DNA of 63,876 bases, filler included, from Phoronis australis (lineage: Eukaryota > Animalia > Phoronida), in assembly GCA_002633005.1 (NCBI GenBank). It is 9 parts of 9 records of this genome, joined end to end, with 100 filler letters (N's around TTAATTAATTAA, not from the genome) between each part and the next. Parts side by side here need not be neighbours in the genome. Positions count along the whole stretch, not along the records: positions 20,167 to 38,803 come from NMRA01001197.1; 8 more parts are not named here. One strand, written 5' to 3'. Made by a program: the position numbers and the translations under genes. This document shows positions 14,192-57,705 of this stretch, piece by piece (position 1 is the stretch's first letter; the number at the start of each line of letters is the position of its first letter). Below the pieces are notes generated by a model. It had not been told where the DNA came from. It saw only the letters and a list, made by a program, of their open reading frames with translations, and made no database searches.

Positions 14192-16680
14192 TTGAATGAA
14201 GTCAAACGTAACAGAAGGTTCCGTAGACGAATCACTAGGAAGACTTTAACCTGCGAAACAAACTACGTAGTTAATTTATCTAACCATAACTTAACTGATA
14301 GTGAGGTTAGCCTACTTTCTAAAGGACGTTACTTCTGTCTTACCAAAACCAATATTGACAAAGATGAATTACTACTCGATATTTACACTTTAGCTAGATG
14401 ACTTAGATTAGTAGCTTATTTTGACAATCCTTTCAAAGGTGAAAACCAGAACTCCCCTTTAGAAATTAATCCTTTCAAGAAAAAAAAACAATTGAAATCC
14501 ACCATTTCCATGAAAGTTACATCGAAGCGATTACTATTGACGCTATGAATTACAAAAAGCAAAACTACAAATATATTATTACTAAGTCCTAAAAAGATGC
14601 CCTTACAAATCTCGCTAAAAACAAAGAAATCATAATTAAACCAGCTGATAAAGGATCAGCAGTTGTTATAATGGACAATCAGAAATATATTGACGAGGCT
14701 CTCCGACCACTTAATGACACAGCGTACTACAAACTTTTAGATAATAACCACAACACAAAACATATCAGCCTTATAACTAAAACTATTTTGAATGCTTTCC
14801 AATTAGTCCACATTGACAAAGAAACAAAAATTACCTCGTTCCTAATGATGCTCAACTTAGTCGCTTTTATCTCCTTCCTGAAATCTACAAAGAAGGTAAT
14901 CCTGGACGCCCAAATATAGCTAGCAACAACTGCCCTACAGAAAAAATTCTCAGTTTGCCAACAACCATGTTCAGCAATTTGTCCCCACAATTCTTTCGTA
15001 TGTTAAAGATACGAATCATTTTATTAATGCAATTAAAAACATCAGGGATTTAAATAAAAGTACCCTTCTCGTAACACTTCATGTCAAAAGCTTATACACT
15101 AATATTCCTCAACATGAAGGCATAGAAGCCTGTTTCAAGTTTCTTAGTCAACGAAATAATCCTAATGTACCTACATCTTGTATTCGCTCTCTTCTTGAAC
15201 ATGTACTTACCATGAATCATTTTACCTTTAACAATAATCACTATCTCCAAATATTAGGCACAGCTATGGGTATTAGGGTTGTTTCTACTTTTGCCAACCT
15301 TTTTATGGGAAATTTTGAAAACAGCTTCATCAAATCCTGCTCTGAAAAACCTATTCTGTGGCTAAGGTATATTGATGACAATTTTATGATCTGGACCCAC
15401 GGCCCACAAAAGTTAGATGTAAATTAAAAATATTAACGAATTTCACCTACTATAAAGTTCACTTATGGCATTTCTCATAATAAAGTCTCACTTTTAGATG
15501 TAACTGTCATCCTTAAATAGTGATAAACTAGAAATTGACTTAATCTGTACAGAAACTGACAAACACCAATACCTGTCACAACCCTCGTGTCATCCCTTCC
15601 ATTGCAAGAAAAGCCTTTCATATAGACTTGCCCTAAGAATTCGACGCATTTGTTCAGAAAAAACTTCCTTTAATAACCGTTTAAAAGAACTCAAGTACTA
15701 TCTACAGTGTAGTTCAACGTCATTTCCCGTTACATCTTATACACAAACAGTTTGACAAAGTCCGTTCAATCACACGAACTAAAACTAATGGCAATACTAC
15801 TAAAAGAATACCATTCATAACTATATTCAATCCATGTTTAAACGTAATTAGCCAAGTCTTCAGAAAACATTTTTCCAGGCTGCATATTTCCCCTCAAATG
15901 AAAAACCTATTTCCTCATTCACCTATAATTTCTTGGAGAAAATGTAAAAATATAAAAAAATGCTTAGTTAAAGCTAATATCGACAATATACACCAAACTG
16001 AAAAACCGATTGGCAACACACACTGTAACAAAACTAGGTGTAAAATGTGTAACTTTATCAACGTTATTACTTTTTTCCAATCTTCCCAAACCAATGGAAA
16101 CTTTGAAACAAAACGTTATTCTGATTGCACCACCAACAGTATTATTAATCTTATAACTTGTAAAAAATGTTCTATCCAATACGTAGGACAAACTCAACAT
16201 AATCTACAAACTCGGTTTCTTAATCATAGATTGATCCTAATACATAAAAACATTTATGATACTATAGGTAATAATTTCAATTCCAAAAACCATAATATTC
16301 AAGATCTTTCTGCACAAATAATAGAAAAACTCCAACACCCCAGTACTCCTCACAGACTCAAAAGAGAACAATATTGGATAGACAAGGTCAATACAATAGA
16401 GCCTCATGGATTGAACATAAAAACTTAAAATATATCATGGAAGTTGTTTACGCAAAAATGTATCATACTTTATTACACCTTATCTTAAATGTCATTTGTC
16501 GTTTAATGTTTGATTTTACTTTATTTCTGTTTCTGTTGACAACGGACGTTTTTACATCCGAAAATTTCAGTTGATCCATTCTTGTTATTTTTTACCAATT
16601 TATATTCTACATTTCGTGAAACAATAGTATACTTGGGAGAATCTGGATCACCTTATTTAGTTTCAGATTTATTGTCTACG
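14192..16680 (+). mobile_element. Decayed Penelope-like retroelement (RT + GIY-YIG, Neptune-like)
   Basis: VVNLS...LLSKG, IKPADKGSAVV, KSLYTNIP, GTAMG and WLRYIDD motifs; linker CNKTRCKMC; GIY-YIG-like ITCKKCSIQYVGQT...REQYWI...PHGLN ending at 16428; multiple stops and frameshifts. Confidence 0.85.
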
Positions 16681-20066: not shown

Positions 20067-20166
20067 NNNNNNNNNNNNNNNNNNNNNNNNNNNNNNNNNN
20101 NNNNNNNNNNTTAATTAATTAANNNNNNNNNNNNNNNNNNNNNNNNNNNNNNNNNNNNNNNNNNNN
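20067..20166. other. Assembly gap with artificial TTAATTAATTAA linker (also at about 38804, 42351, 48832, 51638, 54335, 58517 and 61751)
   Basis: Identical N44-TTAATTAATTAA-N44 spacers giving stops in all six frames. Confidence 0.95.
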
Positions 20167-21552: not shown

Positions 21553-23899
21553 GCTTAGCAGACGACGTACTTGCCGGAAATTGCAACAGATAATTTAGCC
21601 AGGTGTCGCCAGTGAATAATGACGTAAGGGCAAGTGCGTAAGGTCACAGATTTCGTCCATTGAAAGTATACGGAGTTGGCGGTCCATGTACTATAGTCTA
21701 TGATGTAAGTAACATTTTGTTTTTACATAAAGGTACGTTCATAGCACAAATACCCTAGACTTAATGAAACATTTTAATGTCTCTTAAAAACGTTGTTAAG
21801 AATTTCGATTACTGATTTAGATAACATTCTACCCCGAATTAACTTTTAAAATGTAAGGCGTGATTGAGAGTATTGGTTAAAATGCAGTGGTCGTGTTCGT
21901 CTATCTCACAGTTCAATAAAACTTGGACAATAATAATCCAAACAGCTTACATGAAATTGACTGAAAAGTTTCAATGACATACACAGAGCCGTTTTCAATA
22001 ACTCGTGCTCCTCAATTCAGATGAAGGCGATTGGCATCAATATCAAAAATGTTAGAAAAAATTGGTAGGTACTCTGCTTATCTTGAATAACCCCAGTAGA
22101 TGGCGATAGCGTATACTGTGCAATATAATTTGTTTTAACTGTGCCATGTCTAAATTTTTAAACTTAACACTAACGACCGACGTCTGTACGCAAACTTCTT
22201 AAAGCGGTCCCCATGAATTTTCTTTTCTTTAAATATCACATGGGCGTGGTAAAGCATCGCTCCCAGTTGCGACAAATCCGGCACGATGTCAACGGGCTCA
22301 CTAAAAAAGCCACTATCACGCGCCGGGAAACCGATATCAAGAAAACAACCAAAAAATAATAAAAAACCTTCGCGCAACATTGTTACAGTGAAATGTCGAA
22401 TACCTGAGGAAATTCACAGATTTTTGGACGATATACAATTTAAAGCAATGGAACATAAAATCGGACATCGTCACGGCACATCTAGTTTACTTGTTCTCAA
22501 CGACAGTATGCACGCAAATGCACAATTCTCACAGGATCAAAGTTACGCATGCCTTCGCTTTTTGTATCATCTTTCCATGCTATAAACACCTCGTTGACGG
22601 AATGGTATGGCTACTCTCTGAATGAAAGGACTTTGGATACAAACATAAGTGCTCTATTCACGGTGGGAGATTCGATTTGAGTGACCGATTTGTAACTTTT
22701 GATCGTTGATAATAGTAAACACATTTTCAGGCTGGTCTAGGAACTCCTGCTTTCCTGCCATATGCAGGAAAGATGTCAATTTCCAAGTGAACTAGAAACG
22801 AAGACGAGCAATTCACTCACACAGATACTGAATATTGAAAACAACTTTTAGAATTTCTAAGCAAAATGCTACAAATCCTTGTTGTGGCATTAACCAGCCT
22901 TTGGCCATCAAATACACTACTGTAGATTTTTTTAGATTTAATTCGTTAATGAGTACATGTATAATCGGGACGTACTCGGGTTTGAAATTTTTTAAGTCCC
23001 TGACGATACGGGTAAGATTAAATTCAAGATGTGACATGATGGGTCGATTTGGTGAATCACCAACAGCCAGATGTAGTATATGAACCCAATTCATAGGTTC
23101 TTTTAAATTGTTAAACTAATAAAATTACTTACAGACATTACCCAGACATTGTTTTTAGTCTTTTGAGCTAGTGTGTTTTGTCGTGATGTACCTGAACGTG
23201 AATGTAAGTTGATTTTTACATTAAATATGCTGAAATTGATTGTGTCTGGACTTTATGCTATATTTCAAGTTTCATTGTTAAATCTCAAATTTCGTTCGCC
23301 GAGCCAATGATTGGAAATTGGGCAGGATGTAACAAAAGTTCACGGCGCTCTAACGTATCATTTAAAGGACGCGTTTTGTTTTCCTCACCCTATCCTTACA
23401 TATTTTCAAATTATAAACAGCAAATAACATGTTTGGGTTATTGTCAATCTCAGGAGGAAAAGCTAGCCATTCATGTTATACACAAATGACTTATTGTATT
23501 TTATAAAGAAACTGATTTTGTTAATTCAATATTATATCTATAAAACAAGTGAAACTCGTTGGGAACACAATCCTTAAAGTGTTGTTTGGCTTGAATGCAA
23601 GACTAGTAGGTAAAATTGCAGTGGCAGGAGAGGGGATAAATCTGGTTCATCATGAATTACGTAAGGTGTTTTCTATCTAACATAAACTTCCCGGGACATT
23701 ATCGTTCTTAGAACTCCCCCACCGTGGCACTGCCAGCAACTTGGCCGCGCAAGTAGAGCTTACATGCTACTGTATCTGCTATGACTTGCGAGCTGGCACA
23801 AGGAGATTGGCAATAACGGTAAAAAAATCATTTCGACTGATTCAATCGCTGCACAAACTTTGAATTGAAAAATTCATAAAACTCCATACCTTACTCTTA

Positions 23900-25310
23900 G
23901 GATGAATTATACAGAAATATTAAGTGGTTTTGCTGTTGGCCAGTTATCAGCAACACAGAAAAAGGGAGTGATTACCTGCATCCCTCATGGAGCAGATATA
24001 AGTAAACATTATTTGAAAAACTTGAGACCCGTATCTTTACTCAATAAGACACATAACAGGGCTCGACGCTATTAAAATCGCCAGGTCGCATTTTGCGACC
24101 TAGCCAAAATCCCAGGTCGCATTTTCAAAATCCAACTCTCCTTTGTAAATGCCAAGTCGCAAAATTTCCCCGCCATTTTACGCGCCAAAATTGATTTTTT
24201 AGATCATCGAGGACATGTGTAGATTATGCTCTAACCTGCAGCGTTAAATACTCACAAATTTCAGATCGCAAAATTGACTTCGTTCATGCATACGGCGTTA
24301 CTGTTCTTCACGACCGCCATTGAAAGGCTCCAGAGCGCAAGGCAAGTTGCCGACATGAAAGTTGAATCAGTGCTCTCTAACTGAAACGTACATTCGAGTA
24401 GCTAAATTTGCGATGTGAAAATGGAGAAATGTTCGTCGAAAAAGTATCTGGGATTTTGATAGGTCTGACTTGCTACTGGCTGTCATCAAAGTTGTTAAAG
24501 ATTCAAACTAACTCGGAGTGCAAATTCCCTCCACTTTTTGTTCGCAGCCCAAATTTTGCAATTTAACTCGACGTTTGAAAGACATGTGACGAAAAAAATC
24601 CGTGAAACGATTTCCTAACCAAATGACCTATTTGGATGCGTGCAAAAAATTCAGTGCAAATTTCATAACAAAAATGTGGTTCTAATGCTGTTTAGGTACT
24701 CAACAATTAGTTTTCCATGAAATGAATAGCCTCGAAATAATTACCGACTCCCTCCGTGCGGGTTTCCATCGGGTAATGGCGAGTTTGCTTCTTAGTACCT
24801 CCCACGTACGGGAAAAATAGGTCAGTCACAAAACGAAACGCATGTCACTAGTGTTAACTTTCTTTCGGATCGTCAAAGATCGATTCTGCATATCTCATGT
24901 TCACGCGACTTCCTTGCAGGTCATTGCTGTTCTCGGTTAGTGTTCTTTTGAACTTGGATTTGGCAACAACCAAATAACGGTCGGATTAACAAGTGTTGCT
25001 TTATATTTGCCTGGTATCTGCAGAGAAGCGTTAAAACTCGGCTCGCATTCGTTGGAAATTCCAAATAGCTTTTTACGACTTGATACGACCTGACAAAAAT
25101 CTCATCTCGCATTTCTAAATTTCAGGTAGCAAATGCGACCTGCAGCTCGTTATGTCGAGCATAAATTGGCTTCTTCGGCTGTGGCTGACAGGTTAAAATC
25201 TGTTTTGGGAAAAGTAATCAGTAAGCACCAGACAGGTTTCATTTCTAGAAGAAATATGAACGAAAATTTCTGCGTGCTATATGATTTTTGTTTTATGCCC
25301 ATGCAGCTAA
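23900..25310 (+). pseudogene. Tx1/L1 RT fragment split by a MITE
   Basis: QKKGVITCIP...KNLRPVSLLN | KLASSAVADRLKSVLGKVISKHQTGFISRR. Confidence 0.65.
24057..25160. mobile_element. Non-autonomous hAT element inserted in the LINE fragment
   Basis: CAGGGCTCGAC start, ...GTCGAGC end (clipped); GGTCGCA/TGCGACC subterminal repeats at both ends. Confidence 0.6.
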
Positions 25311-25317
25311 TAAACCT

Positions 25318-25600
25318 GGGCCCGGTCTCCAATCTCCGTACTCAGACTCGAATCATGCTCAAACTCACACTTCATACTCAACTCGAGTGCAGACTCAGCT
25401 TTGGTGTATTCAATGTCATACTCGAAAAATCTGTACTCGAAATTTCGAGCACGTACTCAGTTTTTGAGGGTACTCGAACTGAAGTGTATCTAATCTATAT
25501 TTCGATTACGATTTTTCGTAAAAATTCGGAATCTATGCTCAAATCTCAAGTTTGGTATGGCAGTGTGCTTGAAATCGTACTCGAAAATAAATACGAGGCA
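25318..25600. mobile_element. Left end of a PIF/Harbinger-type MITE (same family as 41078-41477)
   Basis: CTG|GGCCCGGTCTCCAATC terminus and ACTCGA(A) repeats. Confidence 0.5.
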
Positions 25601-28104
25601 TAGAACAAAATATCGAAAGGGAACCAAGAAACACAGCAAATCTAAAAAAATAAGTCCTCTCACCGTATCTCAGCACTTCAATTTCAGTTCAGACTAAGAT
25701 AATAGTTTTTATCTTAAATCTTCTTATTCCTCACCTTATTAACCCGCCGTATCACTGAATGTTATGGCCGCCATTCTACCTCTACAATTCCTGGCATCAG
25801 GCGTATTGTAATCTCTTGTCGGCGAGTCATAATAAGCGTCGAAAGCAGTTGTGAGAAAATTCGTGTGAGAAGTTTGTGCTGCCCTTATTTCGGTATGTGT
25901 GCCTACGTTTGTAGGGTTTCCAAAAGACGAGGAGGGAGGGAAGTTAAAAAAGTTCGCTTCCCTGTCAGGTACATTTCTCATCATAACTTAGTCATCTATA
26001 ATTCCTCAATCCCCAACCCAAATGGAATTCCAGATTTTGTTTGCCGATTTCTAAGTAGACGTCTCCTCCCGTTCACTGCCCCTGGTGAACTCTGAATGCC
26101 TGCACAAGTATTGTTTTTTAACTCACGTGCCAAATGTCAACTCACTTGATACATCCCGGTAAAATACAAAGATACAGTATCAAAGTTTGACATCAGCATA
26201 GGCCTACACAGCAATGGGTTTTATGTCAAGACTAAATTAGCAACAGAGATGTGATGTGATGTGATAAGCTGTTACAAATTTCAGACATTTTCGGGACTGG
26301 GTGAGGAAGTCAAGAAGTAAAGCTTAAAAATTGCCAAATGTATCAAAGAAATGGCATAAAAATACTTATTGAAACTAAAAAATGAATATCAGTTACAAAA
26401 CACTCAGAATTCCACGTTAGAGACATACTCTTGTAGTTGTAGTAGGGCGGTCGAAGTCGGCCATTTTGTTTTTGGATGGGTCATTTTCAACGTACCAAGT
26501 TCCATTTTCAAAAATTTTTATTAGTTAAACTCCACATTCTTAAGCTACAAAAAGTAAAGTAACAGATTCTCAAATAAACTTTCTAAACGTACAATAAATG
26601 AGTCTGACCTCTCTGTCCACTAAAGTGTGAAATTCCACCTTTGAATGAAGGTCCAGGTTCAGGAATTCCAGTCTCGCGAAACCGCGGCACCGACAAGTAG
26701 GCATTTTTCAGCTCTTTGCGCATGTTGGACTCACCAGTTGGGGGGGTGCATTAAATGTTTTTACATAAAAGAAAGGTCAAATTTTCACTTTCCGGACGAA
26801 GAATTTTTAATTTCGTCCTTAAACATAAAAATTTTGTTAAATTTCAACTTTAGAGCAAAATAAATACAAGTTAAAAATTTTTTTTCAAAATTCTTCGTCC
26901 GGTTCTTTATAGGCCAACCTCCCCTTAAAATATTGGACTGAACTGCATTCAAGTGTCACATGTCTCCGACGTGCGCAAAAGCGTTATGTGAATGTATCTA
27001 CAACAGCATTTGAAATCTTCGTTAGTGACGTCACTTCCGCGTCCTTCTTCTATGGCGCCAAACACCAAGGTGGTTGTGTGTAAGTGAATACCTCTATTTC
27101 ATCCAAATAATCTAAGTAGCTGGAAGAACTTTTATGGAGGATTAATATCCACAGTGCATTAATATATGACATTTATTGTGCAGATTCTATTATTTGTCCA
27201 AAATGTGTGATAGTGGTCGTCGGAATTCATAATTAAGTTGAAGCTGTCTGCATTGCGATTGTACTTGGTAATTGAAATAAATGCAACCGTACATTACGTT
27301 GTTGGTTTTCTTTGTGATGATACTGTGTCAATTGGAAGTACTGTTCTGTGGTAAATGGCTTAGCTATGGTCTATGATTGGATTTTATGAGAAACGCTGAA
27401 ACAAAGGGGAGCGGGCGGCACAAATAAACGAGGACAAGGTGAGTGCCACACGGGCACTAGTCGGATGGCGTGTTCCAAAAAGCTGTGGGTAGGTGGTACT
27501 TTTTCAGCAAATTTTGTGGGTCCCAATAACCCCTAGATTTCTAATTTTTTTGTAAGAAAAGCCAATTGCTTTTGCCTCAACCCTGTGAAAATTGCTGTGG
27601 CAGTCGTCCCACAGAAATTCTGCAACAAAGGATGGGAATTTGACTTGCCTGGTTACTGAAGTGGGGGTCTCGCAACGATTTTTGGTACATGACTTCAAGC
27701 ACCTTCTCAATGTGACAAACTCCCACCCTCAGGTACAACTAGGGTTAATGGAGTGCAGGGAAACTTGGATTCTGTAAATGACAATACGGTGTGTATGTTA
27801 CACTAGTATTCCCTGAGGACAAGATGGTGCTACTTGAATGAAACGTCAACGGATGTAGTTTTTGTTTATTTACAGTTTTTAGTGCATCCCTCAAGTTTTC
27901 GGCTGAGTAAATCTGAAGAAGGTATTTAAGGTTAAACGTTGGATATTGTAATTTCGTGTTGATTCATCAATATTAAAAATGTGAATAACTTGTTATTGTT
28001 CTTGTTTTGGACGTTATTGTTTTGATTGTTCTTGTTTTACTCTTAATTGAGTAAACACAATTGTTGTTCTTGTTAGTGTTATTGACGAATTCATATGATA
28101 TTTG

Positions 28105-29045
28105 TTATTGACTGTGATCCTTCATTGACCTGCTGTTGAAGTTTGACTTAACCCTTTTATAATTTGTTTGTTCAAAATGTGTCTTGCTCTTTCCACATCT
28201 TATTGAATTGTGTTTTGCTTGTCGCACGACCTTCTGGTGGTTTGGTCGTGCTCTTTGCAGGACTTGTTGAATTTTGTCTTGTTCTTTGCAGGACTTGTTG
28301 AATTGTGTCTTGCTCATTGCAAGACCCGTTGTTGATGCTTGACTTAGCCTTGTATAATTTGTTTTTGAATTTTGTCTTGCTCATTGCAGGACCTGTTGAA
28401 TTGTGTCGTGCTCGTTGCAACACCCGTTGTCGAAGTTTGACATAGCCTTGTATAATTTGTTCTTGAATTTTGTCTTGCTCTTTGCAGGACTTGTTGAATT
28501 GTGTCTTGCTCGTTGCAAGACACGTTGTTGGTGTTTGACTTAGCCTTGTATAATTTGTTCTTGAATTTTGTCTTGCTCATTGCAGGACCTGTTGAATTGA
28601 TGTATCTTGCTCATTGCAGGACTTGTGGAATTGTGTCTTGCTCGTTGCAAGACCCGTTGTTGAAGTTTGACTTAGCCTTGTATCATTTGTTCTTGAATTT
28701 TGTCTTGCTCATTGCAGGACCTGTTGAATTGATGTGTCTTGCTTGTTGTACGACCTTCTGGTGGTTTGGTCTTACTCTTTGCAGGACTTGTTGAATTGTG
28801 TCTTGCTCGTTGCAAGACCCGTTGTTGAAGTTTGACTTAGCCTTGTATCATTTGTTCTTGAATTTTGTCTTGCTCGTTGCAGGACTTGTTGAATTGTGTC
28901 TTGCTCTTTGCAGGACTTGTTGAATTGTATCTTGCTTGTTGAACGACCTGTTGTTGAAATTTGACTTAACCCTTGCATAATTTATTTTTGATCTGTGTCT
29001 TGCTCTTTGCACCTGTTGTTTACTTGTGTCTTGCTTATTCACTAC
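28105..29045. repeat. Higher-order tandem array (about 31-bp and 67-bp units) upstream of the transposase
   Basis: Repeats of TGTCTTGCTC(A/G/T)TTGCAGGAC(C/T)TGTTGAATTG alternating with longer units containing TTTGACTTAGCCTTGTAT. Confidence 0.9.
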
Positions 29046-29112
29046 TTGGTCATCATTCTCCACTTTATTTTTCCTTCCTTGAGTTTAGTACTTTAAACAC
29101 CATATTCGTTTC

Positions 29113-32100
29113 GTGAAAAACAGTCATCAACTTGTTACTACTGTTATGCAATTCTTTTCGTTATTGCTAACTATTGTCATGTCTTTGGTGTATTTGGGTG
29201 ATTTTTGTAAGGAAGTTGGTCTAAGTGTCCAGATTTTGGACCAGTTGAGTGCAAGTGTTTGTGATGTTGGGGACATTGGAGGTGATGGTTGGGGGAAGGA
29301 GGGAGATGGTGCCGGTGGCATTGGTAGTGTGTTGGACAGTTTCAGCAGGGGGTTTGGGGACATGAAGATTTCTAGTTCAAAATTGACAGATGGGTTGATG
29401 AATGAGTTACTTGTTCATTTCAATTACAATGTTGTTGTTTTATATAATGTATTACAAAGGTTGCTGTGTGATCCTGAGTGCTTGGGCAGTGTGAAAGATG
29501 GCAACTGGCGTCTTTGTTTGAAGCGCTTTAAGCAGAGACGTCAGTTTCTCATGAAGAATAAATCGAGAGACTGTTTGCTAAATGAGTATGATAGAAGTGT
29601 ATTTGTTATGCCTGGGAAGCGCAAGACCGATGAAGGGAATGATCCTGTGAAGAAGTTGAGAATGCTTGAGTGTTTGGTGGAGAGACAAGCGGGAATAATT
29701 GAGAAACGGGAAAAAAGGATACAGCAAATGAGTTGTGAGAAAGCTTTTATGCAGAATGAGTTGACGAGTACTTGGCAGGACTGTGGCAGTGTGCATGATG
29801 CTAGCGTGAAAGTGAAAGGTGATAGTACTTTGAGTAAGAGGAATGTGAATAAGAGGTTGTCACGTAGAGAAGTGAAGATTAGGGAGTTGGAGTGTCAAAA
29901 ATGTGAGTTACAGAGGCTACTGCGAGAGACAGAAGATGAACTGGAACGGGTACGCGAGTCTACATTAGATCTGGAAGTAAGGTTGGAGGAAAATGAAGGT
30001 GAGCTAATTAAGACAAAGAGAAAACTGTCATATTATAGATGTAAGATTCCAAAATCATTACGTAAGTTACAGGGAGAAGTAAGTAGTTTAAGTGATGAAT
30101 GCTCAGTGCTGGCAACTGAGAGGAATGAACTGGAAGAAAGGTGTGATGAGTTGGAAAGACTGTTGAATGATAAGGTGGTGAAAGTGTTTGAGAATGGGAA
30201 GTACACGAATGAAGTGCGACTGGTTTTTCAGCAGATGCGTGAGATGGGTGTAAGTGCTCGTAACTGTAGCAATATTGTTCATACAGTTTTAAATAACATT
30301 GCAGGGAAAGAAGTTAATCGATTGCCAGGGTCAACATTTCCAAAATATATGTCTTTTGAGATGCGGGGAATGGCAATGAGGCAGTTAGCAGATGAAATTC
30401 TGGAAGGAGAGAACTTAACATTGCAGAGTGATGGTACAACAAAGTATGGAAGGCATTACCAAACATTCGACGTAAGTACAACAACAGGTAGAACGTTTAC
30501 CATGGGGATGAGAGAGGTGGCAAGTGGAGACAGCAGGACAGCACTCGAGACATTGAAGGAAGTCATTGGTGATGTAGCATCGACAGTTGGAGGTGATGTT
30601 GGAATGGTTAGTAAGGAGATGGTTGGTAAGATCAAGAATACGATGTCCGACCGTGCAGCCACTGAAAAGAAATTCAATGAATTGTTGGGTGAGTATAGGG
30701 TAAGCATACTACCGGAGGTTATTCAACAGTATAATGGTATGTCGAAATGTGAGAGGGAAAGCGTTGATAGAATGAATAACTTTTATTGTGGAATGCACTT
30801 TGTTGTAGGATTAGCAGAACAGAGTGAAGGAGCCCTGAAAGTGTATGAGAAACTTGTGTTTAAAGAAAACGTGGGCAAGGTCGGAGCTGGCTCCGTACCT
30901 GGAGTGTTTCCAAAGGCAACTGAAAGTGGAACAAGTAGGCTTATTCGGACGTTGTGTAAGGCAGTGCAAGGAAGAGCTTCTTGCGAAAAATCTGGCAGAG
31001 CTGGTCTCTTCGCAGATTTTTTGCAAGAAGTTCACCAACGTTCAGTGCCTTTAGCACCGTTTCGAGGGAATAGATTTAATATAATATTTCATAATGGCGC
31101 TGGCGTCTATGCTTTATGGGAGAGGGGATATTTGCAGGAATTTTTTGACAAAGTCAAGGATGACAATCTACTATTGAAAGCTGTACATGCTGATCTTGAA
31201 GTGAGCCAGTATGCTGCTTGTGCTCGTGCATTGGGAATAATAGGTAAGACCATGACAGTACCTCTATGGAATGTGCTCGAACAAAAAGGACACGTATGTG
31301 GAATGGGAGAAAGGTTTAGTGTGTTTTTGGACTGCTGTGAAAGGTGGGCACATGATGCCACTGAGCTGTTGAAAGGTGATGGATGTGTGTTTAATGACTG
31401 TGATATAAGCAAGGACTGGGTGTATGAGAGCTTGGTGGCACAAAATAACTTGACTGATGATTACACTAAACAGGTATTGGAGCTGCTAATGTCTTCATTT
31501 GTATATACATGCCGACGGTTGCTGGGTGATCATCTAGAAGGAGGAAGGCACCACAACATGACACAGGGTGTTCGTGAGGAGACAACGAGTGTACCAAGGA
31601 CTAATGTAGCAGCAGAGAGAGATTTTTCCTGGTTGGATAGGTTAGTTCATACGAAGCCGAGTGCTGAGACTGCTACTGTAGAAGGTATAACAATGTTTAG
31701 TAACAATAAAACGTATGAGTGGATTACTTCTAGGACACCAGCAGAAAGAGATGACATCATGAATGCAGCCAGGACTAGTGTGCGTGAGCAGAGGAATGCG
31801 TTACTACAAAGAAAGGTGGCTTTAAGAAACAAAAGGTGTCAGTTGTCCGAAGAAAAATTAGTCAAAAAGCAACGTTTGGAAGAATCAAATCGTGTACGAA
31901 CCATTAAGCTGACACAACAAATAACTAACCATGGCGGCCTTTGGCAAACCTCTGACCTAGTTGAAAAAAATCAAAATTATCCCGCCATAGAATGCCAACT
32001 GAAATTTCGGAAATACGTTTTGAATCAACCAAATACTGAAGGCATTTTGAATCTTTCAACAAAAGGAAAAAAACACACAATTGAGCAGTTGGCAAATAAT

Positions 32101-32742
32101 TTGAAAAGAGCCATAAGCCTTTCAGTGGATGAGGTAGAACAAAGTGTGGTTAACGAGGACGTTGAAGAATATTTCAGGCCCAATAATGAAGACCTTAATT
32201 TTCAGAAAAACCTGTACCTAGAGCGTGCTAGAAAACAGATCTCCATCAGTGCAGTTCCCCAACCAACAGAAACCAACATCACTTGCTGCGAAGATTTAAT
32301 TGGAAAGAGAATAAAGCATTTGTGGATAGAAAACAATGATAGAGTTTGGTTTCAGGGTACAGTTTGTTATGGAGAGAAGAAAGGCCAATCTTATGAATTT
32401 GCAGTGCGTTATGATGGTGATGATGAGCCATATCATCTACGGCTTTGGAGTGATTTAAAGAAGGGGGAGTTGATTGTCTTGCCTGTTTCAGTTGCAGATC
32501 TCATGGGAGCCAAGATTCAACACCGATTTATAGACAGTGATGGCCATGAAAGTTGGTGGAGTGCTCGTGTGGTTGGTGTGGAAGATGCCGATTGTAATAA
32601 CCCTATGTTTCGAATTTTGTATGATGATGATGACGATGACGGTGAACGTGAAATGTCTGATAGTGATGTTGATTGTGAAAAGCGAGAGTGGAAATTTAAT
32701 TTATTTGAAGATTACAGAAGTAACGACCTTCGCCTTTTGTAG
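29113..32742 (+). CDS. hAT-superfamily DDE transposase with N-terminal coiled coil and C-terminal tandem Spin/Ssty-like Tudor domains
   Basis: Uninterrupted 1209-codon ORF (GTG start in the track, first ATG near 29146, true start possibly spliced); LQSDGTT (D440), TMSDRAA (D513), YCGMH (CxxH 559-562), TNVAAERDFS (E835); Tudor-like repeats from about aa 1061. Confidence 0.85.
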   Translation: MKNSHQLVTTVMQFFSLLLTIVMSLVYLGDFCKEVGLSVQILDQLSASVCDVGDIGGDGWGKEGDGAGGIGSVLDSFSRGFGDMKISSSKLTDGLMNELLVHFNYNVVVLYNVLQRLLCDPECLGSVKDGNWRLCLKRFKQRRQFLMKNKSRDCLLNEYDRSVFVMPGKRKTDEGNDPVKKLRMLECLVERQAGIIEKREKRIQQMSCEKAFMQNELTSTWQDCGSVHDASVKVKGDSTLSKRNVNKRLSRREVKIRELECQKCELQRLLRETEDELERVRESTLDLEVRLEENEGELIKTKRKLSYYRCKIPKSLRKLQGEVSSLSDECSVLATERNELEERCDELERLLNDKVVKVFENGKYTNEVRLVFQQMREMGVSARNCSNIVHTVLNNIAGKEVNRLPGSTFPKYMSFEMRGMAMRQLADEILEGENLTLQSDGTTKYGRHYQTFDVSTTTGRTFTMGMREVASGDSRTALETLKEVIGDVASTVGGDVGMVSKEMVGKIKNTMSDRAATEKKFNELLGEYRVSILPEVIQQYNGMSKCERESVDRMNNFYCGMHFVVGLAEQSEGALKVYEKLVFKENVGKVGAGSVPGVFPKATESGTSRLIRTLCKAVQGRASCEKSGRAGLFADFLQEVHQRSVPLAPFRGNRFNIIFHNGAGVYALWERGYLQEFFDKVKDDNLLLKAVHADLEVSQYAACARALGIIGKTMTVPLWNVLEQKGHVCGMGERFSVFLDCCERWAHDATELLKGDGCVFNDCDISKDWVYESLVAQNNLTDDYTKQVLELLMSSFVYTCRRLLGDHLEGGRHHNMTQGVREETTSVPRTNVAAERDFSWLDRLVHTKPSAETATVEGITMFSNNKTYEWITSRTPAERDDIMNAARTSVREQRNALLQRKVALRNKRCQLSEEKLVKKQRLEESNRVRTIKLTQQITNHGGLWQTSDLVEKNQNYPAIECQLKFRKYVLNQPNTEGILNLSTKGKKHTIEQLANNLKRAISLSVDEVEQSVVNEDVEEYFRPNNEDLNFQKNLYLERARKQISISAVPQPTETNITCCEDLIGKRIKHLWIENNDRVWFQGTVCYGEKKGQSYEFAVRYDGDDEPYHLRLWSDLKKGELIVLPVSVADLMGAKIQHRFIDSDGHESWWSARVVGVEDADCNNPMFRILYDDDDDDGEREMSDSDVDCEKREWKFNLFEDYRSNDLRLL

Positions 32743-33539
32743 AGCACATCTATGTTTGAAATAATTAAACTTCTACTTCATTATTTTATTCCTAATCTTA
32801 ATGCATAATTTACTGATCAATTCATTGCATAATTATTTGTATTATATTAATTCATTTAAAAGTTATTGCCTGTCATTTAGCATAATTCATTACTTAATTT
32901 AATGTGTCTTTTATAATTCATGGAATGATTTGCTGCATTGATTCCTAATTTTTAATATATTGTATAAGGTATTGTTTGTCTTTTTGCGTTATTGGTTACA
33001 TCTTGTGTTCTGTTTAATACTTCATTTATTGGATAATTTGTTACTTGGTTGTTACATCTATCTTATTGTGGTATTTATTGATCTACATATTGTGTAATTT
33101 AATCTAAAAACATTTGATTGCCTGACTAACAGCGTAATTCATTACTTAAATTAATATGTAATAATTAATGTCTTGTATACTTTGCAGCATAATTTATTTC
33201 TTGTACTTTATTGCATAGTGTATTGCTTATCTTATTGCGTTATTCATTATTTGGTTATTGTGCTTCATGTATTGCATAATTTATTAATTGAGATAATAAT
33301 TAAATGTTTTATCTTTCACTTAACATGTTATGGAATTTATTGATCAAGAGATTGTGTAATTTAATTACTTGTTGTGTGAAGATGAATGTGAGCGTGTCAT
33401 TGTGATGGTGTTTTTGAAATGCGAGAGCTCATCTATTTTAGTTACAGTTAAATGTAAAATTTGTTGATATTCCTTTTGTAAACATCTCAATGTTTGATAT
33501 ACCTCAACATCCACTTTATTAATTTATCACTTCCTTAAG

Positions 33540-33965
33540 TTGTTGGTTAACTTATTGCTTAAATTATTGGGTAACTTATTGCTTAAATTATTGTGTAACT
33601 TATTGCTTAAATTATTGTGTAACTTATTGCTTAAATTATTGGGTAACTTATTGCTTAAATTATTGGGTAACTTATTGCTTAAGTTATTGGGTAACTTATT
33701 GCTTAAGTTATTGTGTAACTTATTGCTTAAATTATTGCGTATCTTATTGCTTAAGTTATTGGGTAACTTATTGCTTAAGTTATTGTGTAACTTATTGCTT
33801 AAGTTATTGGGTAACTTATTGCTTAATTTATTGTGTAACTTATTGCTTAAATTATTGTGTAATATCATGCTTAAATTCTTGCTTAAACTATTGTAATTTA
33901 TTCCATAACCTATTGCTTAAATCATTGTGTAAATTATTGCTTAACTTGTTGTGTAAGTTATTGCC
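33540..33965. repeat. 24-bp (2 x 12-bp) minisatellite downstream of the transposase
   Basis: (TTATTGCTTAAR TTATTGKGTAAC)n; degenerate TTATTG versions extend back to about 32800. Confidence 0.95.
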
Positions 33966-34091
33966 GAAGTTACGGTGTACTTTTGGTATAATTCAATCAC
34001 TATCTTACTCTATAATTAATTCGCAAAGTTTCAGGTGATATATATTTCATGTTATTCGGTGTTATTACGCATTTGGACTCTGTATTGTGGC

Positions 34092-34160
34092 TGTGTGTGT
34101 GTGTGTGTGTGTGTGCGCCTGTGTATGTGTGTGTGTGTAACGTGTGCGTATGTACGTGTG
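34092..34160. repeat. (TG)n microsatellite
   Basis: Visible directly in the sequence. Confidence 0.9.
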
Positions 34161-35401
34161 ATGAAACTAGTCTTTTGTTGTTTACTAAAGGTTGCTTTCA
34201 AACTCCATTCATACTTCATATCATTTTAAAAGAACTTATTCAATGATTATTTTTGATTAAATTTACTGGAATTTTTCTGTGTTCAACAGGTTGTTTGCAA
34301 TTTCACTATTTTGGTTATTATTAAGTTTTGAAATTTCTTCTCCCTTCAGTGTTTAAAATTTTAAATTAAATTGTCTTGGATGGCCATGGACGTTGATGCT
34401 CTTTAGTGTCTGGATTTTATTGTGTCATATATTTGTTCCTAATTTTATTTTACAGATATAATATATTTAATGTTCTTCGAAGTTACTATTCAAAGTCGTT
34501 TCTCAAGAAGTGACATGTTTTTTAAGATTGATTAATTTTCTTGCAGTACTCATTCACATTTGAAGAACTTACTTATTTCTTGTATGTAAATAATTTTCAA
34601 TCGTCATATTTGCCTATTCCAGCTATCAAACTACGTCAAGTCAGTTTCCATTTAATGATGATATTTATCATTTTAACATGCTCATCCCTCGTTTTCAAGT
34701 TCAGTTGAAGTACAATTTCATTTCTTGAATTTGTTGTTAACATAGGACTTGTACTAATTTGAATTGATTTTTTCCCACAGGTTATTAACTTTTTTCTTAA
34801 TTGTATTTCAGCTTTGTTTGAATGGGGTTCTTGTTTCAGAAATGAATTACACTTCACTTGTTGTGATTTAACCAGCTACCATACTTTTTATGTCATCTAA
34901 TTGCTCCATATTTTATCATTTTTATTAACTTTTCAACAGATTTTAACTGACATCATCAATTCTCGGTATCTCATTGGTTAGAAGATTGTCAATTTCTATA
35001 TTCCTCACATACGTAAATTCCATTTATTATATTGTTTGGTTCCATTTTATTATGTTGCTTTGTTTTGCGTTTCATTTTGTTTTGTTTAACCTCACTGTAT
35101 GGCAGTGCTTTGACGTAGCAGTGAGGCTCGATTGCAGTTTGACTGCACTCGCTAAAGCTGCCATTTCAATTCCGTTTTTATGCTTATTAATTTTATGTCA
35201 TGAAAAATTTTCAGATAGCTGGTCTTCAGTTGAATTATTATTTACTCTCTTATAGGACTCTGTCTTGAATTTTGTCGTAATTGTTACCTTTCCTCCAAAT
35301 TTTCAATTCATAAGCTGATCCAATATCCTAACCCTTCAATTTTGTTTTTTCAGGGTGGAATTGATCATATTTTTGTTTAAATTTCATTTATATCCATAAT
35401 T

Positions 35402-35938
35402 ATGTCTTCTTCCAGTAATCTTACGTTTGATGAATCTTCTGTTTGCACTAAACCGAGGTCTATACCTTTTCGTTGCCGGCATGGTGTAGTAAACACTTCC
35501 GTTTCTGTCGCATCCTCTTCTTATGTTACAACTAATTACATATCTCATTCGTTTTCCGAATTGAGTCTGTTTACCCCTTCTTCTCATTCTGTTGATTCTT
35601 CTTTGTTGCCGTCGTCTGCCTCGTATGTCTTTGGAGGGAGAAACTCTTACTCCGGAATAGGGTTTCTCAATCCAAAGTACATCCCTGTTGCTGACAGACA
35701 CACATATGCTTCAGTTCCTTCTGATTTAGTCAAGTCCTGCTCAGCTCCTGCCTCTCCTCGGTCCAGGTCTCCGATACCGCCTCGGAGATGCTGGAGTGCT
35801 CAAGGCAGGTTAAACTGTGCCTTTAAGGAGAGGGGACCTCATCAGTTAAGTTCAAGTAATGTCTTTTGTTCTGAGTGCGGTCAGAATCTATCTGATCACC
35901 CTTGGCAATGTTTCCCCATTATTTTAGATTCAGACTGA
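35402..35938 (+). CDS. Putative 178-aa Ser-rich accessory protein with a C-terminal CxxC...H...C motif inside the transposon
   Basis: ATG-started ORF, GC-richer than its AT-rich flanks; ends CSECGQNLSDHPWQC; acceptor-like ttttttcag just upstream near 35353. Confidence 0.4.
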   Translation: MSSSSNLTFDESSVCTKPRSIPFRCRHGVVNTSVSVASSSYVTTNYISHSFSELSLFTPSSHSVDSSLLPSSASYVFGGRNSYSGIGFLNPKYIPVADRHTYASVPSDLVKSCSAPASPRSRSPIPPRRCWSAQGRLNCAFKERGPHQLSSSNVFCSECGQNLSDHPWQCFPIILDSD

Positions 35939-37999
35939 ATGTTGGAAATGTTGCCGTTGGTGATTGTATAAAGTTTAACTGCATTCAGGAAAGCTGACTG
36001 TCCCAAATTTGTTACTCAAAATTATAATACCATTTGAACCAAACTAAGTGCATCGATGCGGAGTAGACACAAAGCTGTAGAGGTAATGAACAGCCTCTTT
36101 GTTTTAGTTTCATACTAATGTAAATTGTCTAATCAAGATTGCAACATGTATAGTATGGGGCCAAGATGCACTTGAGCATGCAAGGTACTCTGGAGGAAAT
36201 TTTATTGTTAATAATTGCTATTTTTCTCCCATTCAACATTGTTTGGATTGTCAGCTTTCCTTATTGTTTTTTATTTGCAGTCTGTTCAGTTTAACTTATT
36301 TTTGTTGTATAATATGATTTAAGTGTATTTTGTTATTGGCCTCATTGGTACACAAGAATGCACGTGTAAGTACTTGCTTAAATTGTATTACGTTAACTAA
36401 CAACTGCTTGGTTACATTACTTAATTTTTTCCCATTCAGTATACCATTGGTTATAAACGAACAAAAGTATAGACATCTTTGCACAATCATGACAGTGCAA
36501 CTATTTAATAATTCTTTTATGTTTTGTTTTGTGACTGTCGCAATTTCTGTTGTACTGCTCTTTTTCATTTTATATATTTATCAAAGATACAAGAGTTAAC
36601 AAAGGTCTTTATTTCAGAAACTTTTACATTGATTCTTTAAGTAAAAAATTCATAATTTGAGCCTAAAGTTTCAGTTCTTTTAAATGTCAAAATTTTGAAT
36701 GCAGCAGGTTGATTTATTTAATCACAGAGGAAAGTTACAGTGGAAATTGGTGTTGAGAGTGCTCACAAGGATTCTAACAGCGTTGAAGTTATAGGAATGT
36801 TTAGATGATCAAGTATTAAATGACTCTAACGTGATGGCCATGATTGGTGGAATATTCACAACCAAACTGATCACAAAGATGTAGTAATGTGTGAAAAAGG
36901 GTGTACAATGCACGACCTTATTAGTAGATTACATATTGGAGATAGTCTAACTACAACTACAATTTAATAGACATTGCACTACAAGGGTTTACATGCTTAT
37001 TTGTAGCCTTTGAGTTGTTAATTTTGTAATCTTGTCGTCATTGAAAATATTCACGTGGTAAGACAATTGTGCTTCATATTTGTTAACTTGAGTAACTAAT
37101 GACAGAAATAATACATTTCTGAGCCCTTATAGACTGAAGTCCACTTACCAAAATATTCCAACTGTTTTCATGACCAAAATATAATTTTTTTCTTTGTAAA
37201 TGTAAAATAGTCATTGCACCCGAATTGCAAGCTTTAGAGCGAATTGAACGGGGAAGACATTTTCCACTGCAACTATTTAAATATTTCGTAATCTTTTACA
37301 AATTAATTATAGAAAAATGAGTTAAAGCCTTTAATAAAGTGAGGAATTGCATATTTAAATGTTGGTTACGTCTCATTTGACGGAGAAGCGATCGATTGAA
37401 AGGTAGCTGTAATTCAGTAAAAGTCGCCATGTTGTCGGTGCCGCCGGAAATGAGACTAAGACGAACGTGAATTTGGTGAACTTTGAACGCATACATATTG
37501 GAGTCGTTGTGAAATAGCCGACTTCCAAGTCGCCGAGTGCTGACCTTGGAAGCTGTATTATTGGTTAAAATAATTTCATCTTTAACTGTAGAACACTAAT
37601 GCTTAAAATCGAGAGCTGAAGTCGAAACTTTTCACAACTATCCAAGATGGCCGAACTCTATCCAAACAATTGACCCAAATTTCGCCACAAAAACGGCAAT
37701 AACATTGCACTGCTCTAACCAATTTTCAAAATTTTTCTATTTTTGTGGAGTGGAATACAATATCTTTCCAATGGTGGTAAGATCTTTTTTCAAAACAAAA
37801 AAAAAATTTTGGTTCGACCGCCCTAGTTGTAGCGACAGCAGACGATAATGTAGGCCTAGTTCTTGGGGTGGTCTAATCCAAGCAAAAGGTACCCGCTCAT
37901 CCAAAACCTTTACGGCAAACAGGTGGCTCTTCTCACCAATCACGTGTCATTTTTATCTATACGGTCTCTGGCTCAAATATAGTCGGTGGGCCAGATCTC

Positions 38000-38551
38000 A
38001 TAGCGTTCCTTGCTGGTTCCCTGTGTGCCGCTAGATGGGGCGGTAGCCGCGCCAGCACGCAGGTATCACTTTCTGATTGGCTAGTCGAATTCTCAACAGG
38101 CAGTGCTTTGCGCAAACAAACTGGCATGACTGATGGACTGAAGTGTAAACGTGGTCTGTAGTACAGACAAATCGGTGCTTAAAATTATGTTCAGGAAATG
38201 TGAGGCCTACTAGAAATTGTAATATCGATTGAGCCTTTTCGGAATACATCTTTCTACTGTCGATGACTTTTGTTTACGATAGTGTCCTTATACAGTATGA
38301 ATAACACGCCGGTTAAATCGGCCACATAATATGTGTTTATTGTGCATGTATGTGCTTCAAGCACGCGGCTATTAAACATCACTTCAGAAACGACAAGGCT
38401 AAAAATCGTTCACAGTCCGCCATTTTTTTCACGTTGTTGTAAAGCTAACCAATGACTGCCAAGATTACATCGCCCAATGCTAAAGCACGTGCCACTAGGT
38501 GATACCTGCGTGCTGGCTGGGCTAAGCACGCAGGGAACCAGCGCGATAGCG
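38000..38551. mobile_element. MITE with long imperfect TIRs
   Basis: GCTGGTTCCCTG...GCCAGCACGCAGGTATCAC versus GTGATACCTGCGTGCTGGC...CAGGGAACCAGC. Confidence 0.6.
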
Positions 38552-40019
38552 TTCATCCTTGTGAGTACTTTAGGGGGGCAACCTAGTTTTTTCTATGTGA
38601 CTAGATAATATACCTATAAATCAAATTCCAAAAAGTTCCCACGTCTACACTTGCACATTTTTTTAAAAAAAGGTGTTTTTGTTGCACAAAATATTATGCA
38701 CATTCCTGCCACTTGGTGGCGCTTTTCTATTGAATTGACCAATCAGAGAGCCAGATTGTATTGTTGTGCTTAGTTACTTCAATATGGCTGCTCCCATGGA
38801 GTGNNNNNNNNNNNNNNNNNNNNNNNNNNNNNNNNNNNNNNNNNNNNTTAATTAATTAANNNNNNNNNNNNNNNNNNNNNNNNNNNNNNNNNNNNNNNNN
38901 NNNTTTTTTTTTGGTAATATTTTTTCAATATCAGCTTCGGGCCACAGAAGCTTTGGGTCACCGTACGCAAACGACCAACATGACTGTTAATAAATTTGAA
39001 AGTAAACAGTATCCGTCTTTGTAGTTTTAGAATCGACGCATTATAAGAGAAATTAGCAAATTTCTTCAGCATCGTGGATAATTATAAGCTATGAGCATCG
39101 CTTAATTTGTGAATCGATTAGGACGGATTTATCAGAGTCTGGCTCAGGCTCGCTTGGGCGTTGGGGTGACAAAAGCCTATAATGTTATAGGAGTTGTCTC
39201 ATGGCATGCTGAGAATGAAAAGTTTGTGGTCATTTCACATTAAAAGCCCTACAGATGAGCACATAAACTTTATCCAGTCTTCTATTGTTGTACACTACTA
39301 CTCCTACTGAAAAGCAATGTAGGCTGAGAAAAAAGGGGCAAGAGGTACATAAACTAGACCTTACACCCCAAAACCACCTCTTCTGTGCCGATGCACGACA
39401 TGAGCCAACATAAGATTCTGAAAGAAAATTTCGTACAGATTCATAAAACTTGGTACCAAACATTTTTTGCAATTCTAGCTTTTTTGCAGTTCGTAGTTAA
39501 TTTCTCAGTCGCCACTCAGCTAATGCTGACATACAGCAGAGGGCCGACAGTATCTTGAAGAAAAGTCGAACTAATGGTTTTTATACGAAGACAAGGTATT
39601 TTGCTAGACATACATATGTGAAATATTGTAAATACGGACAATTTTTGTGAATAAGGTTTGATATAGCCTTAGCAGAAAGCGATTACCATGTGCAGATAAG
39701 CTTGGCATAACATTAAATTAGCTCATGGGTTTCTGATGCTGAGCGTGTTATGTACCATGGAGAATAATTAGTGCGCGCATCTTGTTCTATAAATTACCAG
39801 CATCGTGTGAGGAATTACCGACTTCAAGGAAACAACATGGAGGTGTTAATTATGAACGCAGCGTAGATGGATCAATTTTGCCCGCACAAGTATGTTTATC
39901 GAGTCATTGACTTTATTGACTGAGTTGGAGTTAATGGTGGGATTTTTACAACACAATTAATGATATTGAAATAGGGCCGTCCCGGATTGTACACGGCGCC
40001 ATAAGTCTCCTTTGTGTCG

Positions 40020-40176
40020 GAAATAAGAAAGCGCGTGGGCTCGTTTTAGAAATCAGGCACATTTTCATGTCTCTCATTGATGTCACATCACACATGCACA
40101 GGTATTTGTCCTGTTTATCAAACTTTCTCACATCGGAGTTGCAGCCCACAGCACAGCAGTAATACTTTGTTGGCAT
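40020..40176 (-). pseudogene. THAP N-terminal remnant
   Basis: MPTKYYCCAVGCNSD...FLFP; the rest of the domain is not recognisable. Confidence 0.45.
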
Positions 40177-40883
40177 TAGAGGACTAGAGAATGACATATA
40201 GATGGCGCTGGCTATTCGCATAGGACGAATAGATGACCGAGAAAAACTTGAATAACCCGTGAAGTCCAATGGCACGAAAACTTGGCAGCAAATGTGCCTG
40301 ACGGATGTTTACAGCATTGTGGGTAAATACACAAGGGCCCGACGCACCATAGCACAGGCGCTTGGGTTTATCGCAAATGACGTCACTCAATAATATATAT
40401 AAGAAAACATAAAGGTTGAACACTTAAACTTTGCCAAGCCGAGGCTCCCAACTTCAACCGTCCAAAATCCAAATAAAATCTGCGTGCACCTCCCTCAGTC
40501 TGGTGTTGCATAAACCTTCGAAGCCTTATCTTTCCTAGATCCCATTAAAGGCGAAGGCAACCTTTTTCCATGTCATTTTAAGCTAAAATAAGGTTGGTTG
40601 GTTATCCTAGACATATTTTCCACTTAATTACAGCCTTTCGTAATTTTATTAATTACTCGTCCGCTACTNGAAGTGACGTTTTAGGAGGCAAGCGTTTCCC
40701 GCCACTTGGTTTTGCGTTGACTTTACCGTGCGAATCTGTTCTATTCTACTTTTGTTTTGTGCTGTTTTTCAACAATTGTCGCCACCACTTTCCATCGGCG
40801 AGTATTCTGCTGCAAGATAGGTTAGTAGAGAACTCAACTACGTTGGATTTAGGGCGGATTGTTTAGTGTGTTGTAAGCTGAAA

Positions 40884-42550: not shown

Positions 42551-42861
42551 GTTGACTGACTAGTAAATGAAAGCAAACGACGACGGAACTTAACACAACC
42601 GAGGTAGAACAATGACTGACTCGGCAGCTCTCACAGTCAGACTATATGAAAAGAAATTGGCGCGAAATGCTTGCCGCCTAAAACGTCACTTCCGGAGTAG
42701 CGGACGAGTAATTAATAAAATTACGAAAAGCTGTAATTAAGTGGAAAATATGTCTAGAATAGCCAACTAACCTTATTTTAGCTCAAAATGACATGGAAAA
42801 AGGTTGCCTTCGCCTTTAAGAGACAGATCCAGCTAACCAAATCTAAATTTTGACATTTTAG

Positions 42862-56872: not shown

Positions 56873-57100
56873 AAAGGTGATAATTCATGGGAAAATACTA
56901 CTTAATTCTTTTTAATGTACACTGGACTCATCATTACGATGGTTGCAATACATATAAGTTCAACAAAGTACGTGTTTGTACCAGTGTTTATTATATCGAG
57001 ATTCGTTATATGCAAAAGTTTTTGAACAAGGTTGAAGTCTTTTTTTATATAACTCAATAACTATTTAAGTTTTGATATTTGTATTGTCTCTATTTTTAAG

Positions 57101-57705
57101 GCACCCCATATACGGGACTCCTACTGGTGAGACCAAAAAACACCCAGAATAGTTTCATTGTCTCCTGTGACAGCGGTTGGACAGTTATTCAGCGCAGGTT
57201 CGACGGAAGTTTGGATTTCCACAGAACATGGGTGGACTACAAAGTTGGTTTTGGGGAACTGGACGGCGAAATGTGGCTCGGCAACGACAAAGTATATTAC
57301 ATCACTCAGCAGGCTCATTATAAAATAAAGTGTATTATGACGCTTTTTGATGGCGAGCAATTAACATGTGAGCACAATGCTTTTGCAATTGCCAGCGAGG
57401 CCGAGAAGTACAAGGTGACTGTGTCAAATGTGTTTCAGGTGAATGGTAAAACACATTGCATTGGGTATCTCAACGGCATAATGTTCTCTACCATTGACTC
57501 TAAAAATTCTGGGAGACATAAAAATTGTCCTAAAAATACGCTTGGTGATTGGTGGTTCGAAAATTGTGGTCCTGTCACCCTCAATAACTTATACCCCTTC
57601 CACGGTAATTGTTCGTTGCCGCACATTAGCATGTGTATGAGGACAAAATTTAAAAGGACATATATATTATTAAGTCGCTCGGTCATGCAAATAAAGAGAG
57701 TTTGA
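57101..57705 (+). CDS. Terminal exon encoding a fibrinogen C-terminal (FReD) domain
   Basis: GWTVIQRRFDGSLDFHRTWVDYKVGFGELDGEMWLGNDK...FSTIDS...NC...WWFENC; tttttaag acceptor at 57100. Confidence 0.85.

Follow-up and report, generated by a model that had tools for sequence, protein, structure and literature searches.

Why a DNA transposase should end in two repeats resembling the Tudor domains of the Spindlins is the question raised by a locus of the phoronid Phoronis australis. The locus lies in a stretch of 63,876 nucleotides, here called the window, in which nine genomic parts are joined end to end with filler between them. An earlier note on this DNA had read the locus as a hAT-type transposase fused to tandem Spindlin-like domains. 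The coding frame at 29089-32742 was the sole long frame of the window and contained neither a stop nor a frameshift. Read from the N-terminus, the protein has a part with a long coiled coil, an RNase H core interrupted by a helical insertion, a helical C-terminal domain and two Tudors. The parts preceding the tail are as follows.

29089..32742 (+): transposase ORF, 1217 aa stop to stop, first ATG at 29146
30430..30432 (+): catalytic D448, D in 151 of 153 aligned cores
30649..30651 (+): catalytic D521, D in 153 of 153 aligned cores
30787..30798 (+): CxxH motif, C567 (C in 151/153) and H570 (H in 153/153)
31615..31617 (+): catalytic E843, E in 152 of 153 aligned cores
31831..32124 (+): helical C-terminal domain (aa 915-1012), family-wide, in the interval between core and Tudors

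The glutamate named E835 in the earlier note is E843 of the stop-to-stop frame. In the core alignment the DDE triad was intact in 105 of the 108 Tudor-bearing proteins. A model of residues 355-1217, made with 51 alignment rows, had a pLDDT of 90 and showed an RNase H fold in the core and, within it, a helical insertion. The top VIA fold match of the core was Hermes (Z 15.3, rmsd 4.0 over 343 residues), followed at lower rank by ISCth4 (9.4), the P element (8.2), RAG1 (6.3) and Transib (6.2); the Foldseek list for the model was headed by chains of Hermes and of Spindlins. The conserved triad and the best fold match of the predicted structure thus uphold the proposal of a hAT-type core. The tryptophan of the RW motif is the hairpin residue of Hermes. 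R662, which we equate with the arginine of that motif by position only, was kept in 152/153 aligned cores, and the residue following it was F in 129/153. No Pfam match to a BED zinc finger or to Dimer_Tnp_hAT was found at E values up to 1. The lack of a BED finger, taken with the 7-bp target-site duplication (TSD) described below, places the element outside the canonical hAT groups, and the enzyme is best described as hAT-like. Since the Repbase listing includes hAT families with a 7-bp TSD, that length bars the canonical groups and not the wider hAT-like set. The label hATw was the earlier reader's; neither a definition of such a group nor mention of a Tudor tail in it was found in the literature searched.

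The ends of the element were sought by an inverted-repeat and TSD scan of 23000-29146 against 32742-40500, and its extent was also followed in summed contig depth.

26443..37825 (+): whole DNA transposon, 11,383 bp
26443..26455 (+): left terminal inverted repeat (TIR), 13 bp (TAGGGCGGTCGAA)
37813..37825 (-): right TIR, 13 bp
26436..26442: left TSD, 7 bp, GTTGTAG, identical to 37826-37832
37826..37832: right TSD, 7 bp
26684..26696 (+): subterminal 13-bp inverted repeat, left copy, partner 37432-37444
37432..37444 (-): subterminal 13-bp inverted repeat, right copy
26469..27072: left-end sequence common to many related genomic copies, from summed contig depth
28127..29039: 31/98-bp tandem repeat array, 5' of the ORF
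33531..33979: 24-bp tandem repeat array, 3' of the ORF

The 13-bp TIRs match perfectly and the same 7 bp flank both. One such TIR and TSD pair was observed, and 100 shuffles gave two at the laxer 10-bp level. At the left boundary the summed contig depth, which is not a copy number, dropped from about 36,600 to about 1,300; it stayed at 583-1331 up to 27072 and was then 21.6 inside the element, the depth of unique flank being 24. By this profile a high-copy repeat adjoins the element, many relatives exist for the left end of the element, and the depth of the ORF is that of a single copy. Diverged relatives of the ORF were seen over the core only. The neighbouring sequence at 24057-26442, which the left end of the transposon abuts, consists of nested, very high-copy repeats with sharp ends near 24057, 25160 and 25314, and these are abundant in RNA reads of both strands. 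A relative locus (L001), which encodes a two-Tudor protein (P0003), has a 15-bp TIR beginning TAGGG and a 7-bp TSD. It was the only locus to give a clear TIR/TSD pair among the 19 scanned of the 41 related loci fetched, most contigs being too short. None of 51 frames of at least 40 aa outside the ORF and repeats matched the 41 related loci or the collected proteins, so a second gene within the element was not found. One frame inside the element, at 35381-35938 (+), encodes 185 serine-rich residues with a possible zinc-ribbon end; it had nothing significant in Pfam and no homologue among the related loci and collected proteins. The element is intact, of the cut-and-paste type and hAT-like. In other hosts, near-identical full-length proteins on separate contigs (P0004, P0301 and P0302) point to recent activity.

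The rest of the window holds other elements. Two frames at 14924-16428 (+), with matches to reverse transcriptase (E 3e-8) and GIY-YIG (E 1e-3), form a broken Penelope-like element, and a weak RVT_2 match (E 9e-4) at 54893-55525 (+) is likely a copia-type remnant. Inverted arms of about 170 bp with 92% identity, at 40545-40713 and 42649-42819, lie 2 kb apart with an N gap between them and possibly belong to another DNA element. A direct duplicate of about 1.4 kb (1661-3046 and 11592-13020, 85% identity) contains internal tandem and inverted repeats. The frame at 57100-57705 (+) encodes a fibrinogen C-terminal domain (Pfam E 5e-39) and is probably a host exon. Apparent 100-nt inverted repeats at the eight gaps, e.g., 20067-20166, were rejected as artefacts of the filler, in which a 12-base spacer stands between two runs of 44 N.

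The tail of the transposase has these features, the cage residues being given as equivalents by alignment with SPIN1.

32293..32481 (+): Spin/Ssty-type Tudor repeat 1; cage equivalents W1079, F1088, Y1108 and Y1115; D1122 equivalent to SPIN1 D184
32497..32739 (+): Spin/Ssty-type Tudor repeat 2, with acidic loop; cage equivalents F1147, W1157, Y1178 and W1201; D1208 equivalent to D184
32623..32688 (+): acidic insert in repeat 2

The two repeats make up the last 149 residues of the ORF and are in frame with the transposase, so that the pair of similar C-terminal repeats quoted in the earlier note is present as described, with no stop or frameshift. A mismatch-free DNA contig, from a sequencing run that may be the window's own source, spans 31264-33525, and the end of the core and the tail are therefore not an assembly join. 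When the tail alone was compared with the PDB by phmmer, only Spindlin-1, -4, -3 and -2 chains were found at E < 1e-3 (17 of the 19 sequences listed), the best at 9e-7. A profile of the transposase Tudors found the Spindlins at E 1e-33 to 1e-36, and the next match was at 0.005. In Pfam the tail alone scored 19.3 bits against Spin-Ssty (PF02513), below the cut-off of 25, and 29 bits against Agenet, above the cut-off of 27. The tails of relatives do pass the Spin-Ssty cut-off, with a maximum of 47.2 bits. Modelled with AlphaFold from a 13-row alignment (pLDDT 90), the tail consists of two beta-barrels, and the best match of this model among 48,161 chains searched by VIA was Spindlin-4 (Z 9.5, rmsd 2.6 over 67 residues); the Tudor of RDM15 followed within 1 Z, at 8.8. 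The anticipated Tudor fold was thus obtained in prediction, with a Spindlin as top structural match. The superposition on Spindlin holds for one domain at a time, the Foldseek rmsd across both repeats being about 15. The Foldseek matches included SPIN1 structures with SPINDOC and HBx peptides. Judged by sequence comparison, the tail domains are homologous to the Spindlin repeats, yet the protein is not a Spindlin.

The fusion was next followed through the family. The homologue query was residues 400-1198, and because the Tudor tail lay inside both homologue queries, Tudor-bearing matches were favoured in the counts that follow. Among 53 homologues, 45 carry the tail, eleven with two Tudors and 34 with one; the other 8 end early. 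A family profile matched 2,028 clusters at E < 1e-30. The best 150 included 141 new proteins, 67 of them with a Tudor and 9 with a long Tudor-less extension, and 65 that end before or just past the helical C-terminal domain. A search with the Tudor only returned 93 proteins, in 92 of which it was joined to this transposase's core or C-terminal domain; since no vertebrate Spindlin was returned, that search is not exhaustive. Named members come from a sponge, molluscs, echinoderms, a hemichordate and fishes. Distances among the Tudors vary together with those among the cores (Mantel rho 0.53, reached in 0 of 999 permutations, 67 proteins), and the fusion is therefore old. Both gars have two-Tudor proteins: an alligator gar protein entered as 'SPIN4 protein' (P0006) and spotted gar LOC107077401 (P0286/P0146) are two-Tudor transposases with intact DDE, and the idea that they are catalytically dead was rejected on that ground. 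The two are 61% identical in the core and are vertebrate members of the tandem group. In the ESM Atlas the gar tail led to Spin/Ssty clusters at 0.87-0.88, which are leads only. RNA of the P. australis copy was sought in three RNA runs labelled with this species but taken from other samples, about 18-19% of which was read, and no read of at least 95% identity and none on the tail was seen. The runs gave 15, 9 and 0 reads, all of them 90-95% identical and all on the core; at that identity they come from related copies.

In SPIN1, repeat 2 binds H3K4me3 via F141, W151, Y170 and Y177, and the D184A change lowers binding about 90-fold (PMC3967050). The window protein has aromatics at all four cage positions, and the D184 equivalent, in both repeats. 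The claim that the aromatic positions are retained is accordingly correct, four of four in each repeat by alignment, with the column of W1201 less sure than the others because this position follows the acidic insert. Family-wide counts were made after gappy rows were dropped and the set was dereplicated at 70% identity, which kept 135 of 184 domains. In the 110 dereplicated single Tudors, whose mean identity is about 35%, the positions of F141, W151, Y170 and Y177 are aromatic in 91, 100, 110 and 93 domains, respectively; the cage is full in 71/110, and D or E stands at the D184 position in 108/110. Conservation of Y170 and D184 may be for folding. In the tandem group a full cage was found in 2 of 12 repeat-1 domains and 4 of 13 repeat-2 domains; the two full cages of the window protein are unusual there, and many members of the group may lack a SPIN1-like way of reading methyl-lysine. 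The D184 equivalent is kept in 13/13 repeat-2 domains. Across 11 non-identical pairs, which are not independent of one another, conservation was higher in repeat 2 than in the preceding linker for 10, and for repeat 1 the same held in 8. By analogy, the tail likely binds methylated histone H3 tails, with H3K4me3 as the mark suggested by SPIN1 repeat 2.

The two repeats of the window protein share 29% identity. The two-Tudor proteins formed one group in the core tree with a FastTree support of 0.94; a quick IQ-TREE run of 45 rows gave the group an SH-aLRT of 57, the careful search being unfinished. A single origin of the tandem is, from these trees, likely and not firm. A relative outside the tree (L030, 6323-6693) has two Tudor-like stretches with a stop between them, perhaps an independent duplication. 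The earlier comparison of the tail with the Spindlin repeat pair did not survive profile scoring. The repeat-1 profile gave 30.2, 35.4 and 12.7 on Spindlin repeats 1, 2 and 3 (single transposase Tudor medians 36-45), and the repeat-2 profile gave 17.6, 23.1 and 2.1 (medians 24-34). Both repeats thus score best on Spindlin repeat 2, and are not counterparts of Spindlin repeats 1 and 2. The tandem was also rejected as direct ancestor of Spindlin repeats 1-2, since its scores on the Spindlins are no higher than those on single transposase Tudors. Because of the profile scores and the one-domain structural match, we conclude that the tandem goes back to a duplication that took place in the transposon family and is not Spindlin's repeat pair, and the double readout of K4me3 plus R8me2a cannot be assumed for it. 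At the Tudor position nine relatives have a different module with conserved aromatics (P0202, P0211, P0213, P0221, P0222, P0242, P0243, P0275 and P0277); these are seven of the nine proteins with long Tudor-less extensions, and two others. The module had no significant Pfam match. A profile of eight such modules placed plant Agenet-domain proteins first in the PDB, with weak E values of 4.5e-5 and 9e-4, and HHalign against the Spin profile gave a probability of 37% over 14 columns. If the alternative module is of the royal family, one reader has replaced another, and the position would be under selection for chromatin reading.

The relation to the Spindlins themselves was addressed by profile scores. 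The profile of one transposase clade, marked by the motif VPGFP and represented by 31 fragments, gave 60.2 bits on Spindlin-1 repeat 2, against a median of 94 on its own clade and maxima of 52.3 on sponge-type Tudors (n=16), 37.2 on basal Tudors (n=21) and 38.4 on tandem repeats (n=29). The sponge-type and basal profiles gave Spindlin repeat 2 scores of 29.2 and 24.5 bits, respectively, lower than the medians of 36 and 32 that they gave VPGFP domains. PMC3967050 describes the Spindlins as conserved in vertebrates. The simplest reading of the score pattern, a comparison made with no tree, suggests that Spindlin derived from a Tudor of the VPGFP lineage. The rival readings are that the VPGFP lineage recaptured a Spindlin-like domain from a host, or that the closeness of the two reflects differences in rate. 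The broadest picture is of a large animal family of hAT-like DNA transposons that carries its own histone-methyl reader for target choice, has duplicated it in one lineage and exchanged it in others for a different royal-family reader, and gave rise in one clade to vertebrate Spindlin, the transposon silencer, by domestication; we regard this whole as possible and put it forward tentatively.

We consider the reading of methylated histones for target capture the most likely use of the Tudors, a view held by analogy and with modest confidence. As we infer from the ends of the element, the DDE transposase would excise it by its TIRs and insert it with a 7-bp stagger. The Tudor cages would bind methyl-lysine on the histone H3 tail, H3K4me3 if SPIN1 repeat 2 is a guide, and the bound mark would tether the transpososome to marked chromatin, giving an insertion bias at target capture. 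The duplicated second repeat might add avidity or a second mark. The present copy adjoins a very high-copy repeat and not an obviously active promoter, but one site tests nothing.

The cage evidence would serve equally if the Tudors read methylated histones at the donor locus, for finding and excising copies or for shielding them from silencing, and not in target choice. Many related left ends in the genome are available to the enzyme, and a Spindlin-type domain does meet transposon chromatin if, as the title of a 2026 preprint states, SPIN1 silences young transposable elements (10.64898/2026.08.20.746118). However, the known integrase readers act in targeting, according to PMC12477816, and we regard a donor-locus role as distinctly unlikely. 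Tudors also bind methyl-arginine on PIWI proteins, and the tail might be a protein-interaction module for a non-histone partner, which could be PIWI or some other methyl-arginine protein, a cofactor of the host or a further subunit of the transposase. The decay of the cage in most tandem members, the long acidic loop in repeat 2 and the SPIN1-SPINDOC and SPIN1-HBx peptide structures among the fold matches would all suit such a partner. On the other side, the basic-tail anchor equivalent to D184, with its retention in nearly all single and all repeat-2 domains, fits an H3 tail, and a non-histone partner appears unlikely. A last explanation, for which the Spin-Ssty score below cut-off and the RNA of this copy being unseen in three runs might be cited, is that the tail represents host sequence captured as a passenger, or that an artefact of assembly or prediction created the fusion. 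The single open frame and the contig support speak against it, as do the family-wide presence of the Tudors, the conserved cage and the co-variation with the core; family conservation largely refutes this explanation, which we hold to be very improbable.

If reader-guided target capture is correct, then the steering of insertion by a reader, known from retrotransposon integrases, would extend to a natural chromatin-guided cut-and-paste system in the form of a Spindlin-type DNA transposase family. The intact single-exon copy with defined ends makes the proposal directly testable. Should Spindlin derive from this domain, then an epigenetic regulator of vertebrates that acts against young transposons would itself be transposon-derived. 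The database entries 'SPIN4 protein' (gar) and 'SPIN3-like' (Mya) are explained, as they are transposases.

Like Hermes and the canonical hATs (PDB 8edg, 4d1q, 6dwz and 2bw3), the enzyme is predicted to have a DDE core of RNase H fold that holds a helical insertion, and it has a CxxH motif and short TIRs beginning TAG (13 bp here, 15 bp in L001). The canonical hATs make an 8-bp TSD, whereas it is 7 bp here and in L001, and unlike them this protein has no BED finger or Dimer_Tnp_hAT match; in most aligned cores of the family the RW arginine is followed by F. It also differs from Hermes, with which it shares 12% identity, in its size of about 1200 aa, the coiled coil, the extra helical C-terminal domain and the Tudors. 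With Spindlin-1 to -4 the tail shares the repeat fold, as predicted here, the cage positions and the D184/D189 equivalents (profile E 1e-36), but Spindlins are stand-alone proteins with three repeats in one globule, and here two repeats with a short linker and an acidic loop are borne on a transposase. In full-text searches of openly accessible papers no DNA transposase with a Tudor domain, of Spindlin type or otherwise, was found. RAG2 reads H3K4me3 through its PHD finger. The RAG1-RAG2 pair is similar in combining a transposase-derived enzyme with a methyl-histone reader, RAG1 being a weaker fold match here (Z 6.3), but it carries the reader, a PHD finger, on a separate protein, and its ends and TSD differ. 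The chromoviruses and Ectocarpus Gypsy-10_Ec32 also have a royal-family reader C-terminal on a DDE enzyme. Reader domains on integrases have a role in targeting, and Gypsy-10 is called the first reported transposable element with a Tudor domain, in a 2025 paper (PMC12477816). The Gypsy elements are LTR retrotransposons, whereas the element described here is a cut-and-paste DNA transposon with a reader of Spindlin type.
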